A stretch of DNA of 64,000 nucleotides from Escherichia coli (GCF_048403405.1 NZ_CP183129.1), one strand, 5' to 3'; positions 42,759 through 61,708 are shown, counted from the first letter of the stretch. Numbers and translations are program-made. The notes: a model not told the origin generated them from the sequence alone.

Positions 42759-42824
42759 ATCTGTTTGTAGAGTGTTGGCTTCAATGCCGCATTGTATCTG
42801 GTTTCTTTCTAATGCGGTTTTTGA

Positions 42825-42847
42825 TTATGTACACCCTTATGTACACG
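42825..42847 (+). repeat. Two tandem TATGTACAC arm-type sites (distal end of island)
   Basis: ttatgtacacccttatgtacacg; 21 of 23 identical to, and in the same orientation as, the copy beside the integrase gene (61638-61660). Confidence 0.7.
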
Positions 42848-43229
42848 TTTTTTTAAAGCGTTCAGCAATTACGCTGGTGGATGATCACGGATGGCCTGAT
42901 ATCTACAGCCGCCTTAAAAAGCTGGACCCGACCAGCATTACTGCGTATCGGGTTCGTTCGCTCTTTCTACTCGTGGCAGATGAGTTTATCGGTGTGATTT
43001 TATCGGGCGAGGGTATTGTATCAGGCATCCCCTTTTCTATGCAGATTTGCATAGTTTCGAATGGTGGCGTTATGGAAGCCTCTCATATCAGCATCATGCC
43101 CACCAGCGTGAAGTATTTTTTATTTCGCGGGTGTAAAAATTTGACGAGGCGGCGGTCCCATAAGCAATGGGTTGTAGGGATTTCGATCCCCCCTCCTGAA
43201 TGCAATTTTTCGTATATATACAAAACAGT

Positions 43230-43381
43230 GCGGGTTATGCGGGTTACCGGGTTATCTTAGCGTGCTAACTATTTTTTGTTCTTTAGTATCAATATGTTGC
43301 AAAATGCACTGTTCATTATTCAAGCATCGCATAACCCGCAAAACATCCCAAATAACCCGCAAACGCCCCAAAATAACCCGC
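43230..43381. repeat. Iteron cluster 1: three direct GCGGGTTAY 9-mers (43230-43255) plus three inverted copies spaced 21 bp apart (43331-43381)
   Basis: Read directly from the sequence; the same 9-mer recurs at 53610-53732. Confidence 0.85.
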
Positions 43382-44050
43382 AAACACATTGCTGAAAGCA
43401 GGGGTGGATAGTTCCACTGGTGCCACAGAACGGCTGAATACGGTAACTGTTGCTGGTGGTCTGTCCTGTTGTCGTTCCAGTCTCATCAAATTGAGAGGCA
43501 AGACAAAGTGCATTTTTGCACTATAGCCAAAGCCTCATAAAACAGAGTTACCCCCACAGGCTGGCAAACCATTACCCAACGCAATTAAGTGCGTCAGAAT
43601 CGATTACAGCGCGTTCCTGTGGCACGTTGTTGCCGTTCTCAGCAGTGAAAGGAGAGCGTGAAAAGCGCATATCTATTACTGTTGAGGGGTGTAGCGGCAT
43701 ATATCGCGAATATCCACGCCCTTAATCCCGATACCGTCACGGCGCATTGAGATCCACCAGAAGATTAAGATAGTTTTTACCTGAAATTATCCAAATAATT
43801 GTTTTAACTGATTAATTTTTCGAATATCTATTGTTAGGGAATAAATCATCAGATACACCATAAAACGACATCTTTCAGGGTGTAGAAGATGCAAAGCCGG
43901 TACTGAAGAAAAGACAAAGAATATGAATGGCTGGCCACACGATGGAAGGATTGTCCATTGAAGGATCAATCCTAATGGTATAAGTATTAATAAAACCGTG
44001 CAGGGGGCTTTTTTATCTGCGGATTCCCGCCCGGGCGGCGGTGGCATTCG

Positions 44051-44076
44051 TTAAAAACAAGGCCGCGAAAGCGGCC
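44051..44076 (-). terminator. Rho-independent terminator ending the cargo operon
   Basis: On the minus strand: hairpin ggccgc-tttc-gcggcc followed by a U-run (plus-strand A5 at 44053-44057). Confidence 0.75.
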
Positions 44077-44090
44077 TGTGACATGTCACG

Positions 44091-58973: not shown

Positions 58974-59192
58974 TCAGGCTGATGTGTTTCGGCGTTCTGC
59001 CAGCCAGTTATTAATTTCCACCGCATCAAACGCAGTCACGTTATCTGTTAGCTTCACTGGGCGTGGAAGAGTGCCATTTTTAACCCATCTATCAATAGTA
59101 GGCAGTGAAACACCTAGCAATTCCGGCATGCGAAAGCGACGGATGTATCCAGTTGTTGGGATAGCTGATGATGCTGGCTTGTGTGCTGTCAT
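58974..59192 (-). CDS. alpA: AlpA-family transcriptional regulator / excisionase-like (MerR-type helix-turn-helix)
   Basis: 72 aa; RMPELLGVSLPTIDRWVKNGTLPRPVKL is the typical AlpA helix-turn-helix. Confidence 0.8.
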   Translation of the reverse strand: MTAHKPASSAIPTTGYIRRFRMPELLGVSLPTIDRWVKNGTLPRPVKLTDNVTAFDAVEINNWLAERRNTSA

Positions 59193-59663
59193 ATCTCTAG
59201 TAACCTCTCTGATAGCTCATGAAGTTACTTAAAGTTTAGTGGTTGCCCATACAGTATTTCTATTAAGACTAGAATCTATTGAAAGAAATTATAAATCTAT
59301 TGAAAAAATACCGATCCACTGAAAGATTGCAAATGCAAGTGGGATAATTATTTTCTTTATTTTCAATTAGTTACCAGTTTAAAAAATCATTGTTTTATCA
59401 AAGAGTTATATCTTTCATCGTCATTCATCATGTTTTTACATTTCCTTTTATCTTTTATTATTCAATTGGTTGAGTCGGTTTATAATGGCTCATGATGGCT
59501 TAAAATGGCTAATGATAGCTGGCGTATCTTTTAGAGATGGGGTGATTACAGATGAACTAAGCCGAACAGATATAGCAATGGCTAGGCATAGAATTATCTA
59601 TGCTGGTGGAGATGGGTAAACAGGTAATGCCCCGCCATTGCTTTGGAGGGGCGTGAAAAGTGA

Positions 59664-60314
59664 TTAGTCGAGATCGTGGACAGCTAATAAAGCCCGTGAG
59701 ATTTTTTCTAGGAATGTGGCTTTTGCTATTCCTTTATGGGATATCCCTTCATCCTTGATTAAGGTTTCTATGTCACGGTATATAGCTGTGCGATTAGGTT
59801 TCCCATTTTGGATGTAGGAAGATGAGCCTGATTTTTTTATCAGCAGATGTACTATCAACCCCATCATTTTCATTGTCCCGTTTTCCTCATCCTGCTTTCT
59901 ATGCTGCCCACGTCCGCTGCGGTTGGTTTCTTTGATGTAGTTTACTAACTGGAGTCCTCCAAGGTTTCGGGCTTTTTCTTCCCAGCCCTTGGTGCCACGC
60001 AAATCATCAATCGCTTCTGATATTTTCTGAACAATTATTTCTGGTGTATTTGTGTCAATAAATGGGTAAGAAGCTAAGAAAATATCAAGGGCATGGCAAG
60101 GCTCGTCTTTACTAGTTTTTTCACCTCTGTACACCTTGATAGCTCTGGCAAGATGAGTTCTGACAAAATCGACATATTCGAAATTTTCCTCAGGCACATC
60201 GCTAATGCGCATAGATGGGTTTAGGCCAGCCAAGGCCACAGCCATTTCATGAGGGGTAATCGATACAGATGAACAAAGCCGTTCGATTGGCGATTTTCTC
60301 AAGATGTTGTTCAC
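59664..60314 (-). CDS. Hypothetical protein (216 aa), AT-rich, translationally coupled to the integrase
   Basis: GTG start overlaps the integrase stop (GTGA); no recognisable motifs; markedly lower GC than the integrase. Confidence 0.6.
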   Translation of the reverse strand: MNNILRKSPIERLCSSVSITPHEMAVALAGLNPSMRISDVPEENFEYVDFVRTHLARAIKVYRGEKTSKDEPCHALDIFLASYPFIDTNTPEIIVQKISEAIDDLRGTKGWEEKARNLGGLQLVNYIKETNRSGRGQHRKQDEENGTMKMMGLIVHLLIKKSGSSSYIQNGKPNRTAIYRDIETLIKDEGISHKGIAKATFLEKISRALLAVHDLD

Positions 60315-61579
60315 ATTTGCCTCCGGGCTTTATCGAATGGCGTTACGTTGTAGTCTTTCCCGCTTTCCAGTGCCACCAGCAGATCAGCCCACTGTGCCAG
60401 CGCAGCTTTACGCTCATCAAAATACTGATGGCGGTTATAAATCCCCTCCACACCCTTAATGCGATGATTGAGGCATCGTTCCGCTACGACAGGATCAACA
60501 CCCAATGCTGCTAAATGAGTACGTGCGGTACGCCGGAAGTCGTGAATCGTGAAATTAGGCACATCCGGCATTTCGGCGCGAACCTTAGCCAGTGCTACGG
60601 GTAAAGTGCTTTCCTGAATATGTGGGATCATTCTGTTTTGCATCTTCCTGGCTGGAAGCACCCATGCGCTATTACATGAAAAGGTGTGTAGCTCTCTCAA
60701 CCATTCAACGGCAGGAGAAGGTAGAGGTATATCAATAGGGTCTCCGTTTTTGCTGCGTTCTTCCGGCAAATGCCATACCGCACCATCTAAATCAAACTCT
60801 TCCCATCGTGCGGCGCATAACTCCATCTTACGAACGCATAGTGCCAGCAATAGCTTAAATGTCAGTTCGTTCTGGCGGCTGAATCCTTTTGCGGTGCGCA
60901 TAGCCTCGAATAGCCTGATAAGCTCATCGCGAGTTAGCCAACGGTCGCGGGAAACCTCTTTACCACCAGCATCAGATACTTCAAACGCTGAACAAGGGTT
61001 TATCTCCAGAGCGTGGCGTTTTATCCCATAGTCAAAGATACGGCGTGTCCAGCGTAATACATCTGTTGCTATCGTTGGTGCTCCTCGGTCAACGATACCT
61101 TTCAACATGTCGTCAATGTGGCGTGGCTTAACGTCCTCTACCTTCATATGCCCAATGCAGGGGTTAATATCCTTATCAATTCTCCGGCGAAGGATATCGG
61201 GATGTTTCCATCTCGGAAGTATCTGTCGCTCGAAGTATTCGGCGGCCAGATCTGAAACGCGCATGGCGTTTTTCTCAGCCTCCATTTTTGCCAGTGCTTC
61301 AGCTTTTCGTTCCTGTTTTTCTGCTGCTACGTCATAGCCAAGAGCAACTCTGGCTGACAGCTCTTTTGCTATTTCTCTGGCTTTTGATAGTGACAGTTCG
61401 GAGTAAGAGCCGATAACCATAGCCCGCTGTTTTCCTGCGAGCTTATATCGGAATCGCCAGAACGGGACTGTGTAGTTTTTGGGGTAGCAAATATAAAGGC
61501 CGTTGCCGTCTGCCTTGCCATCAAATCTGTCTCCCGCCTTTATCCATGCGCGGATCTGCATATCTGTGAGTTTTGGCAT
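60311..61579 (-). CDS. int: Tyrosine recombinase / P4-type integrase
   Basis: Start trimmed to MPKLTDMQIRAWIKAGDRFDGKADGNGLYIC...; C-terminal catalytic motifs (R...HDFRRT...Y), 422 aa. Confidence 0.9.
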   Translation of the reverse strand: MPKLTDMQIRAWIKAGDRFDGKADGNGLYICYPKNYTVPFWRFRYKLAGKQRAMVIGSYSELSLSKAREIAKELSARVALGYDVAAEKQERKAEALAKMEAEKNAMRVSDLAAEYFERQILPRWKHPDILRRRIDKDINPCIGHMKVEDVKPRHIDDMLKGIVDRGAPTIATDVLRWTRRIFDYGIKRHALEINPCSAFEVSDAGGKEVSRDRWLTRDELIRLFEAMRTAKGFSRQNELTFKLLLALCVRKMELCAARWEEFDLDGAVWHLPEERSKNGDPIDIPLPSPAVEWLRELHTFSCNSAWVLPARKMQNRMIPHIQESTLPVALAKVRAEMPDVPNFTIHDFRRTARTHLAALGVDPVVAERCLNHRIKGVEGIYNRHQYFDERKAALAQWADLLVALESGKDYNVTPFDKARRQM

Positions 61580-61605
61580 TGCGAATACCTGAATATCGAA
61601 TATGG

Positions 61606-61660
61606 GTGTGTACATAAAGCAATGTACATGAAAGTCATTATGTACACCTCTATGTACACG
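61606..61660 (+). repeat. Four TGTACA-core arm-type sites upstream of the integrase gene
   Basis: gtgtgtacata, atgtacatg, ttatgtacacc, tatgtacacg; the last two copies nearly duplicate 42825-42847. Confidence 0.7.
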
Positions 61661-61708
61661 CATATTGTGCGCTTTGTTGCGTCGTTATGATAGCTCATGA
61701 TAACAAAA

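Follow-up and report, generated by a model that had tools for sequence, protein, structure and literature searches.

A candidate phage satellite in Escherichia coli that carries podovirus ejection-protein genes

We analyzed a 64,000-nucleotide stretch of Escherichia coli DNA from assembly GCF_048403405.1 (record NZ_CP183129.1), which we will call the window. Between cvrA and dadX, the window contains a 19,028-bp integrated element (positions 42757-61784) with a long leftward operon whose far end includes three genes for podovirus internal virion proteins, or ejection proteins. On balance, we think that this element is an integrative satellite whose backbone is of the P4 type or the phage-inducible chromosomal island (PICI) type, and that its likely helpers are temperate epsilon15-like podoviruses, that is, the Uetakevirus-type prophages of E. 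coli. As judged from sequence comparisons, it probably belongs to a previously undescribed family of satellites of temperate podoviruses, which is marked by the ejection-protein module. An initial annotation of the window had described an atypical, possibly uncharacterized satellite, and this agrees with what we found. The backbone resembles those of PICIs and P4, and a PHROGs scan that covered all 19 open reading frames (ORFs) of the element found no match to capsid, portal, terminase, tail, or lysis families. It also confirmed that the canonical P4 genes sid, delta, and psu are not evident.

The initial annotation ended the element's gene order in unnamed cargo. There is indeed cargo, which we can now identify as a podovirus ejection-protein cassette. 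Positions 44016-51534 of the window are 99.1% identical over 7,519 nt to positions 19926-27444 of locus L003, which is an intact epsilon15/BPP-1-like K1 prophage of strain AF14. In this prophage, the matching block follows a gp14-family gene. The rest of the element has no DNA similarity to the prophage.

We will call the three large proteins of the cassette E1, E2, and E3 (Table 1); each has a full-length match to PHROG families of virion proteins. Roughly residues 257-370 of E1 form a lytic transglycosylase (SLT) domain that matches Slt70 structures, and over its first ~235 residues, E1 shares 52-66% identity with proteins from epsilon15, SPN1S, TL-2011b, and ZX5. E2 and E3 both have syntenic homologs in Stenotrophomonas phage BUCT708 and Pseudomonas phage Ab31; for E3, the identity is 45-49%. 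E3 is also ~30% identical to proteins from Pelagibacter podoviruses that are annotated as internal virion proteins. The order of the three genes is that of the internal-virion block of temperate podoviruses (BUCT708, Ab31, and the Pelagibacter podoviruses). Within the triad, only the SLT domain of E1 matches solved structures (E2 and E3 have no relative among them), and Pfam gives nothing significant for the 850-aa E3.

The last gene of the cassette encodes a 186-aa protein that shares 100% amino acid identity with the prophage copy and has no PADLOC or NCBIfam match. In P22, sieA follows gene 16, and the position of the 186-aa gene parallels that of sieA. Speculatively, this protein is a candidate exclusion or moron protein.

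Comparison with sister elements indicates that the cassette is exchanged. Sisters at yicC are 99.4-99.8% identical to the window's element on both flanks of the cassette (42743-44092 and 51105-61806), and between these flanks they have a different allele of the triad (843, 686, and 918 aa). A third allele (837, 600, and 824 aa) is found in an element with a different integrase, which is integrated at tRNA-Gly. Three alleles with intact ORFs, in two integrase/att modules, indicate that the cassette is a maintained module and not debris. Between satellite and prophage copies, the dN/dS ratio is 0.05-0.21; between two satellites, it is ~0.3. The window's allele is rare in satellites, as we found it in just two other genomes, and it was apparently captured from a K1 prophage only recently. 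Allele B is present in 46 genomes; each full-length copy that we inspected sits in a satellite, and the closest prophage version that we found, in an intact prophage, is 79% identical.

The right crossover lies inside E1: residues 1-140 are 96-99% identical among the satellite alleles, and the remainder is 10-25% identical. The left recombination flank is a 77-bp terminator region that is also found in prophages. The N-terminus of E1 looks like a satellite-type domain that doubles as a recombination boundary. (Compared to prophage versions, E1 residues 1-140 are only 41-96% identical.) Together, these alignments indicate that the cassette stays current via homologous recombination with resident prophages.

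The exchanged block does not include a gp14-family gene. Upstream of E1, the element has a 52-nt relic of the 3' end of this "T7 gp14 family" virion core gene, which is 100% identical to sequence within the gp14-family coding sequence of prophage L092. The gene itself is absent from the element, and tblastn finds none in sisters L001 and L004-L006. Similarly, tblastn finds no homologs of the prophage's capsid, portal, or large terminase in sister loci L009-L011.

The element appears to be a recent arrival between cvrA and dadX. In K-12, these genes are adjacent, as the initial annotation stated; the spacer is 385 bp long and contains nothing but a partial IS1414. Outside of the window, we found the element at this locus in none of 5,426 complete E. 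coli genomes, so it is not shared with K-12-like strains and is not part of the core genome. Besides the putative arm-site motif described below, there are no direct repeats of 9 nt or more at the ends of the element, and the junctions were therefore defined against empty sites. Strain 4621 has the empty site: its left flank aligns up to window position 42756 and its right flank restarts at about 61785. The island proposed initially is thus real, and its limits (given as 42800-61700) can be refined to 42757-61784.

The junction alignment places the element inside the 3' end of a gene for a leucine-rich repeat (LRR) protein, so we rejected insertion into the cvrA-dadX spacer DNA itself. We also rejected a tRNA target: the window has no tRNA genes and the target is the 3' end of a protein-coding gene. 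The LRR gene is intact in the empty-site strain 4621 (L002 1668-3104) and loses its last 30 codons through the insertion. In its LRR domain, the encoded protein is similar to the type III effectors SlrP and SspH2. The gene belongs to an islet of about 2 kb that is separate from the satellite (40763-42758 and 61785-62038 in the window) and that contains a 95-aa ORF (40864-41151, minus strand) along with the gene for the 478-aa LRR protein. The islet is found in roughly 830-1,120 of the 5,426 complete genomes (~15-20%) and is absent from K-12. It is older than the satellite insertion.

A chicken isolate has a near-identical copy of the element (99.88% identity over 19,052 nt) with dinD and yicC as its neighbors, and sister elements also occupy the yicC site. 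Because the site in the LRR gene matches the yicC core at only 16 of 21 positions, the comparison identifies the window's copy as a secondary-site integration and the 3' end of yicC as the usual home. The initial annotation had missed both the home site and the LRR-gene target, but the insertion itself is borne out. The copy at yicC, the pseudo-attB in the LRR gene, and the empty site in strain 4621 point to recent mobility, and the window's copy documents a secondary-site integration that truncated an effector-like LRR gene. In strain NRZ14408 (L096), the flanks of the LRR site are essentially identical to those in the window (100.0%), and the yicC site of NRZ14408 holds a sister satellite. 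An occupied yicC site might explain the secondary insertion in the window's strain.

The attachment sites are consistent with this picture. In K-12, the 21-bp attB core at yicC is TTATTCGATGTTCTGAATCTG, and the pseudo-attB in the LRR gene is TTAATCAACATTCTGAACATG. The element carries a 21-bp mimic of the end of yicC, TTATTCRATATTCTGAATCTG, which rebuilds yicC when the element is inserted there. In the window, attL lacks 2 bp ("CT") relative to the expected junction, at the predicted position of strand exchange. The attL of L005, at yicC (~2500-2520), is also missing the CT; L001 has a 7-bp deletion (~4055-4075); and L004 has the full 21-bp core. The attL deletions are possibly failed excision attempts or the result of selection for stabilized copies.

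Near its ends, the element has copies of a short repeat, TATGTACAC. There are 6 copies in the window, where 0.18 would be expected, and 5 of the 6 are within ~100 bp of the element's ends. These repeats are found only with this type of integrase, and they are absent from L006, which has a different integrase. Their distribution is as expected for arm-type integrase binding sites, and we consider them to be putative arm sites. Also, a search with the predicted attP junction found three public contigs in which the integrase end is joined straight to the left end. Taken together, the sequence comparisons show site-specific integration (including at a secondary site), modular cis-acting sites, and cassette exchange.

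The same integrase also travels with another type of ejection genes. We found sister satellites with a P22-type set in 83 complete E. coli genomes. In the two long contigs with an attP-type junction, the set includes proteins that match phrog_770 (annotated "DNA transfer protein") and phrog_917 (annotated "released from the phage upon host infection"), and it is adjoined by an Abi-family gene and a weak SieA-like match. For instance, NRZ14408 has a ~19.2-kb P22-type sister at yicC (L096 10000-29242) with the same integrase and the same gene for a 216-aa protein. The AlpA proteins of the P22-type sisters are close to the window's; the version in L094 is 96% identical. The sister in NRZ14408 (as well as those in L093 and L094) encodes a TOPRIM-DUF927 primase, a DUF2824 protein, proteins similar to gp7, gp20, and gp16, and Abi and PerC genes. 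The sequences indicate that the P22-type set was acquired independently in the same position, which is convergence. Across the family, the elements are 19.0-20.1 kb in size.

To look beyond E. coli, we scanned one genome per species by aligning the primase, and we found 70 loci. In eleven of these, ejection-type genes lie close to the primase, and capsid, portal, and terminase genes are lacking. Loci with ejection-type genes are found in Pectobacterium, Buttiauxella (P22-type), Serratia, Raoultella, and Enterobacter. The relative from Pectobacterium encodes an 844-aa protein that matches phrog_992 over its full length. In Pectobacterium zantedeschiae (L131), a block on the opposite strand (13137-17426) lies between the primase and the ejection gene, and it includes QueC-like and nucleoside deoxyribosyltransferase-like proteins; this block may be a DNA-modification or defense insert. 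Among 80 IMG/VR loci with a related primase, only 3 have the epsilon15-type triad and none has the P22-type set. Most relatives of the primase are therefore other kinds of elements. Strain APEC 16-1068 (avian pathogenic E. coli) has a satellite-like element of ~10 kb at tRNA-Ile (L007 9087-19142). It shares much of its backbone with the window's element (Icd-like, YlcI, DUF4222, primase, SSB, and the 68-aa gene), and its ejection slot instead holds a ClpP-protease/major-capsid fusion gene and a gene for a DUF1441 protein.

To compare the occurrence of satellites and likely helpers, we used as the query the segment 51105-51619, which is conserved in satellites and prophages. We defined the satellite form by 98-100% coverage of the query and the lack of a gp14 gene, which gave 44 records. 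A second copy of the conserved segment is present in 31 of these 44; for comparison, ~9% of other genomes have any match to it (odds ratio 23; naive p = 4e-22, which ignores shared ancestry). All 16 prophage-only records among the matches listed have a single copy. In APEC E18055, the satellite is at yicC and an intact 40.5-kb Uetakevirus-type prophage lies between guaA and yfgI. This prophage has a two-protein ejection set (L168 27125-32856): one protein of 905 aa, which contains an SLT domain, and another of 1004 aa. The three-protein set of the satellite and the two-protein set of the prophage are different ejection types in one cell. Genomes of the helper type are mostly 38.7-41.8 kb (TL-2011b is 44.8 kb), and the satellites are about half the size of most of them.

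We propose that the satellite's cycle would run as follows. Upon induction of a helper, or infection by one, the Rha/AntA/AlpA module would derepress the long leftward operon. The integrase and AlpA would excise the element, which would be replicated by means of the DUF927 primase-helicase, the single-stranded DNA-binding protein (SSB), and the two iteron clusters. The ejection genes would be transcribed as the last part of the operon, up to the terminator at 44060-44077. The satellite's ejection proteins would then enter the procapsids of the helper. A helper-sized head (~40 kb) would be filled by about two copies of the 19-20 kb satellite DNA; we infer that the helper does the packaging. The papers that we consulted do not state how epsilon15-like phages package their DNA. 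In the next infection, the satellite-encoded proteins would make the channel that carries DNA across the envelope. We speculate that having its own ejection set could free the satellite's transfer from the helper's allele, for instance by allowing entry into helper lysogens that keep out their own type of ejection proteins. In P22, SieA blocks the gp16/gp20 conduit, and sensitivity to SieA depends on the allele (PMC10461980).

Several observations weigh against a satellite of epsilon15-like podoviruses. Neither a pac nor a cos site could be identified in the element, nor could a gene for a small terminase or for capsid redirection; we infer the packaging of satellite DNA from sequence, and the benefit of carrying ejection genes is a conjecture. 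Without a gp14-family gene, the satellite's ejection set is incomplete on its own. A PacA-like match in the 138-aa protein (see below) is weak, and this protein has no Pfam domain. No second copy of the conserved segment is present in 13 of the 44 satellite-bearing records, and just one second copy is confirmed as a prophage (in APEC E18055). The co-occurrence statistics ignore shared ancestry, and many of the carriers are related K1 strains from poultry or extraintestinal sources. As for the attP-type junctions, these could stem from tandem integrated elements instead of circles, and the attP pattern had 0 matches in IMG/VR viral contigs. Two of the three contigs (the long ones) have a different interior, with P22-type ejection genes and not this cassette, and the third does not extend far enough to show which type it has.

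The lack of a recognizable packaging gene could also mean that the element moves in some other way, such as by occasional generalized or lateral transduction or with another mobilizer, and that the cassette, acquired through recombination with prophages, is a passenger or a size filler that plays no part in transfer. The window's allele, at 99.1% identity to the prophage, is a very recent capture. Also, genes for SSB and ProQ/FinO proteins are common on conjugative plasmids. However, we found no relaxase or type IV secretion component among the element's gene annotations or PHROGs matches. A mere passenger would not be expected to stay intact in three alleles, with two integrase modules, and in other genera, or to be matched by the independent gain of a P22-type set in the same position. 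The dN/dS ratios are below 1, and allele B appears to be satellite-specific. We consider the passenger explanation to be unlikely.

We have even less confidence that the element is an island for defense or exclusion, in which the copies of the ejection proteins and the secreted 186-aa protein would block the channel of an incoming podovirus, or poison helper particles, to the benefit of the host. Satellites are known to carry defense genes (PMC10121019). The cassette does end with a predicted secreted protein, at the position equivalent to sieA of P22, and in the P22-type sisters the ejection genes are next to an Abi-family gene and the weak SieA-like match. But proteins that act as decoys would be expected to diverge, and these are 99% identical to functional prophage copies. 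Their genes come last in the replication operon, and this position suggests induced rather than resting expression. Running PADLOC on the small ORFs gave only a weak match of AntA to a candidate family and no recognizable defense system.

That the element is a decaying, immobile chimera of an epsilon15-like prophage fragment and a P4-like cryptic element seems very improbable: it does have virion genes without the rest of a virion module, a gp14-family relic, a frameshifted PerC gene, and (in several copies) small attL deletions, but size and gene order are constant across integrases, sites, and species, the long ORFs are all intact, a 99.9% identical element is found at two chromosomal sites with clean junctions, and attP-type junctions exist.

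A satellite of temperate podoviruses thus remains our preferred explanation. A bolder proposal, about which we are doubtful, is that the epsilon15-type and P22-type branches together form a distinct and widespread family of ejection-protein satellites (at least 127 of the 5,426 complete E. coli records have a member, as do other Enterobacterales), which would parasitize temperate podoviruses by re-equipping the delivery channel of their particles, and not the capsid or the terminase. If this is true, satellite-loaded particles could enter cells that exclude the helper's ejection type, for instance via Sie-type systems, and ejection-protein alleles would be a shared, recombining currency between satellites and helpers.

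The remaining features of the element are listed in Table 1.

Table 1. Features of the element and of its insertion site, by position in the window
Feature	Position	Strand	Evidence or remarks
Host LRR-protein gene, insertion target	41412..42758	+	448 aa after truncation; intact form is 478 aa
attL	42745..42763	.	Left half of the LRR pseudo-attB (TTAATCAACATT), followed by GAATCTG of the element
Two TATGTACAC repeats, left end	42826..42846	+	Putative arm-type integrase sites
Iteron cluster 2, near left end	43229..43382	.	Five TGCGGGTTA: 3 at 21-bp spacing, 2 inverted
Ejection-protein cassette, exchanged as a unit with Uetakevirus-type prophages	44016..51534	-	Proteins of 873, 565, 850, and 186 aa
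Intrinsic terminator, end of the long leftward operon	44060..44077	-	Inside the 77-bp stretch common to satellites and prophages
186-aa protein after the triad	44091..44651	-	phrog_11983, full length; N-terminal hydrophobic stretch read as a putative signal peptide
E3, internal virion protein, 850 aa	44654..47206	-	phrog_684 "virion structural protein", E 5.6e-271
E2, internal virion protein, 565 aa	47203..48900	-	phrog_3003, full length; weak phrog_342 "internal virion protein"
E1, internal virion protein, 873 aa	48902..51523	-	phrog_1044 and phrog_992
Relic (52 nt, 3' end) of a "T7 gp14 family" virion core gene	51540..51591	-	Upstream of E1
68-aa protein preceding the virion module	51620..51826	-	phrog_4934
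PerC-family regulator gene	51959..52184	-	Annotated as frameshifted
138-aa protein, function unassigned	52193..52609	-	phrog_1711 and phrog_63
ProQ/FinO-family RNA chaperone	52590-53087	-	NCBIfam ProQ and FinO matches
Single-stranded DNA-binding protein	53124-53546	-	TIGR00621, above the curated cut-off
Iteron cluster 1, putative origin beside the primase gene	53609..53733	.	Six TGCGGGTTA: 4 direct (3 at 21-bp spacing), 2 inverted
DUF927 primase-helicase, replication initiator	53757-55883	-	Pfam, E 3.6e-46; phrog_1139 "DNA primase", E 2.3e-174
DUF4222 protein	55880-56182	-	Annotation and PHROGs
85-aa protein	within 55880-56770	-	
Icd-like protein	56435-56770	-	NCBIfam
YlcI/YnfO-family gene	56844-57041	+	Divergent; a 65-aa gene follows, and the pair spans 56844-57296
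Terminator after the YlcI/YnfO and 65-aa genes	57387-57406	.	Terminator prediction
AntA/AntB antirepressor-family protein	57465-58208	-	RefSeq annotation of a relative, PHROGs
Rha-family regulator	58201-58899	-	RefSeq annotation of a relative, PHROGs
AlpA-family regulator or excisionase	58974-59192	-	Pfam PF05930, E 6.9e-6; phrog_66
216-aa protein, function unassigned	59664-60314	-	phrog_30524
P4-family tyrosine integrase, 422 aa	60311-61579	-	phrog_1, E 3.8e-64; RefSeq annotation of a 99.9% identical copy
Three TATGTACAC repeats, right end	61608..61659	.	Putative arm-type integrase sites
attR	61768..61788	.	Mimic of the yicC 3' end carried by the element (TTATTCGATATTCTGAA), followed by CATG... 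of the LRR gene

The genes listed in the initial annotation, from the integrase to the ProQ/FinO protein, are all present on the minus strand and in the order given there. The 216-aa protein accompanies the integrase in every element with this integrase that we inspected; it is 100% identical in L094 and has the same accession in L096. It has no Pfam or PADLOC match. The Rha and AntA/AntB proteins are "Bro-network" proteins, and this slot varies, as sisters have Bro-N or GIY-YIG genes. A 345-aa ORF (56435-57472) appears to be spurious: in the 99.9% identical copy, RefSeq keeps only its last 111 codons, which encode the Icd-like protein, and two small plus-strand genes overlap the remainder. 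An Rfam scan of the element, which would have included regulatory RNAs, gave nothing at E <= 0.1.

The initial annotation also noted iterons, and we found that there are two clusters of them; it had missed the one at the left end. The iteron, TGCGGGTTA, occurs 12 times in the window as compared to 0.53 times expected, and 11 of the 12 copies are in the two clusters. The first cluster sits between the primase and SSB genes. By analogy with P4, the second is a putative crr-like site or second origin. The iterons are inherited with the DUF927 type of primase and not with the integrase.

Three small genes separate the ProQ/FinO gene from the cassette. The N-terminus of the 138-aa protein is encoded by a DNA segment that is 83% identical to pacA of phage P1 (PacA is a terminase subunit). 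This protein also has a weak local match to the C-terminus of the prophage's small terminase (E = 0.003, in a single comparison). We considered whether the 138-aa and 68-aa proteins might be relatives of the prophage's small terminase and rejected this, as there is no meaningful similarity. The 138-aa protein is a lead for a packaging-related role, nothing more. The frameshift in the PerC-family gene is annotated in every relative that we inspected (L001, L004, L005, and L006), so this conserved "frameshift" may be a site of recoding, or the gene may truly have a shorter product (a 49-aa ORF, 51959-52108). A homolog of the 68-aa protein precedes the protease/capsid fusion gene in the 10-kb satellite-like element, L007.

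How does the element compare to known systems? Full-text literature (subscription journals were outside the scope) yielded no account of ejection proteins in satellites, or of an element at the yicC site. Nor did we find satellites of epsilon15-like or P22-like E. coli podoviruses described in this searchable literature.

The cassette itself is homologous to the ejection modules of epsilon15/BPP-1-like podoviruses, with the same gene order and with an SLT domain in the first gene. Similarly, the P22-type sister satellites have the type of set that P22 has (genes 7, 20, and 16, with sieA). Unlike those modules, the cassette lies outside of a phage genome, has no gene of the gp14 family, and is joined to the replication operon of a satellite. 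We rejected an intact or defective Uetakevirus-type prophage because there are no terminase, portal, capsid, tail, tailspike, or lysis genes around the cassette.

Like capsid-forming PICIs (cf-PICIs), the element has phage-derived virion genes in a late module downstream of the replication genes. However, cf-PICIs encode capsid, portal, protease, connectors, and terminase, and they take only tails from their helpers, whereas the element encodes solely proteins that are internal to the head and are ejected. As it has no capsid module, we rejected a cf-PICI.

The element resembles P4-like satellites in its P4-family integrase, AlpA, its Icd-like gene, a large primase-helicase, and two separated iteron clusters. 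(P4 has ori and crr, which the two clusters recall.) Its primase-helicase belongs to DUF927. But the PHROGs scan found no sid, delta, psu, or epsilon family match, we recognized no cos site, and the likely helper is a podovirus instead of a P2-like myovirus. Given the lack of sid, delta, and psu, we rejected a P4-like satellite.

The closest functional likeness is to the Gram-negative PICIs of the EcCICFT073 type. As in these islands, the integrase is terminal, AlpA and Rha/AntA have the same orientation, an iteron origin is adjacent to the primase-helicase, and there is a dedicated att site (the yicC core). Also, capsid, tail, and lysis genes are lacking. For mobilization by a helper, the signs are indirect: the contigs with attP-type junctions, the co-occurrence with prophages, and the copy at a secondary site. 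Nevertheless, the element departs from PICIs in three ways. First, it has no hijack gene: PHROGs, Pfam, and NCBIfam identify no small terminase, Rpp, Ppi-type, or capsid-morphogenesis gene. Second, it carries three phage virion genes, and PICIs are defined as having no structural genes. Third, PICIs are usually smaller than the 19-20 kb of this element.

These differences matter for the detection of satellites. The rules of SatelliteFinder assign elements that have no more than an integrase, AlpA, and primase to the "Type C PICI" class, which was excluded in the published study (PMC10085698). By these published rules, the element would fall in this discarded class, so current satellite detectors pass over elements of this kind. 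Known families of satellites act on capsid size, packaging specificity, tails, or helper expression. In the literature that we could search, no family is reported to encode the proteins of the DNA-injection channel, and in this scope ejection proteins are a new type of satellite cargo. If the element works as we propose, then the ejection channel (ejectosome) would be a new target for hijacking by satellites, and these elements would make it possible to study, in a natural setting, how the alleles of ejection proteins govern entry and exclusion.

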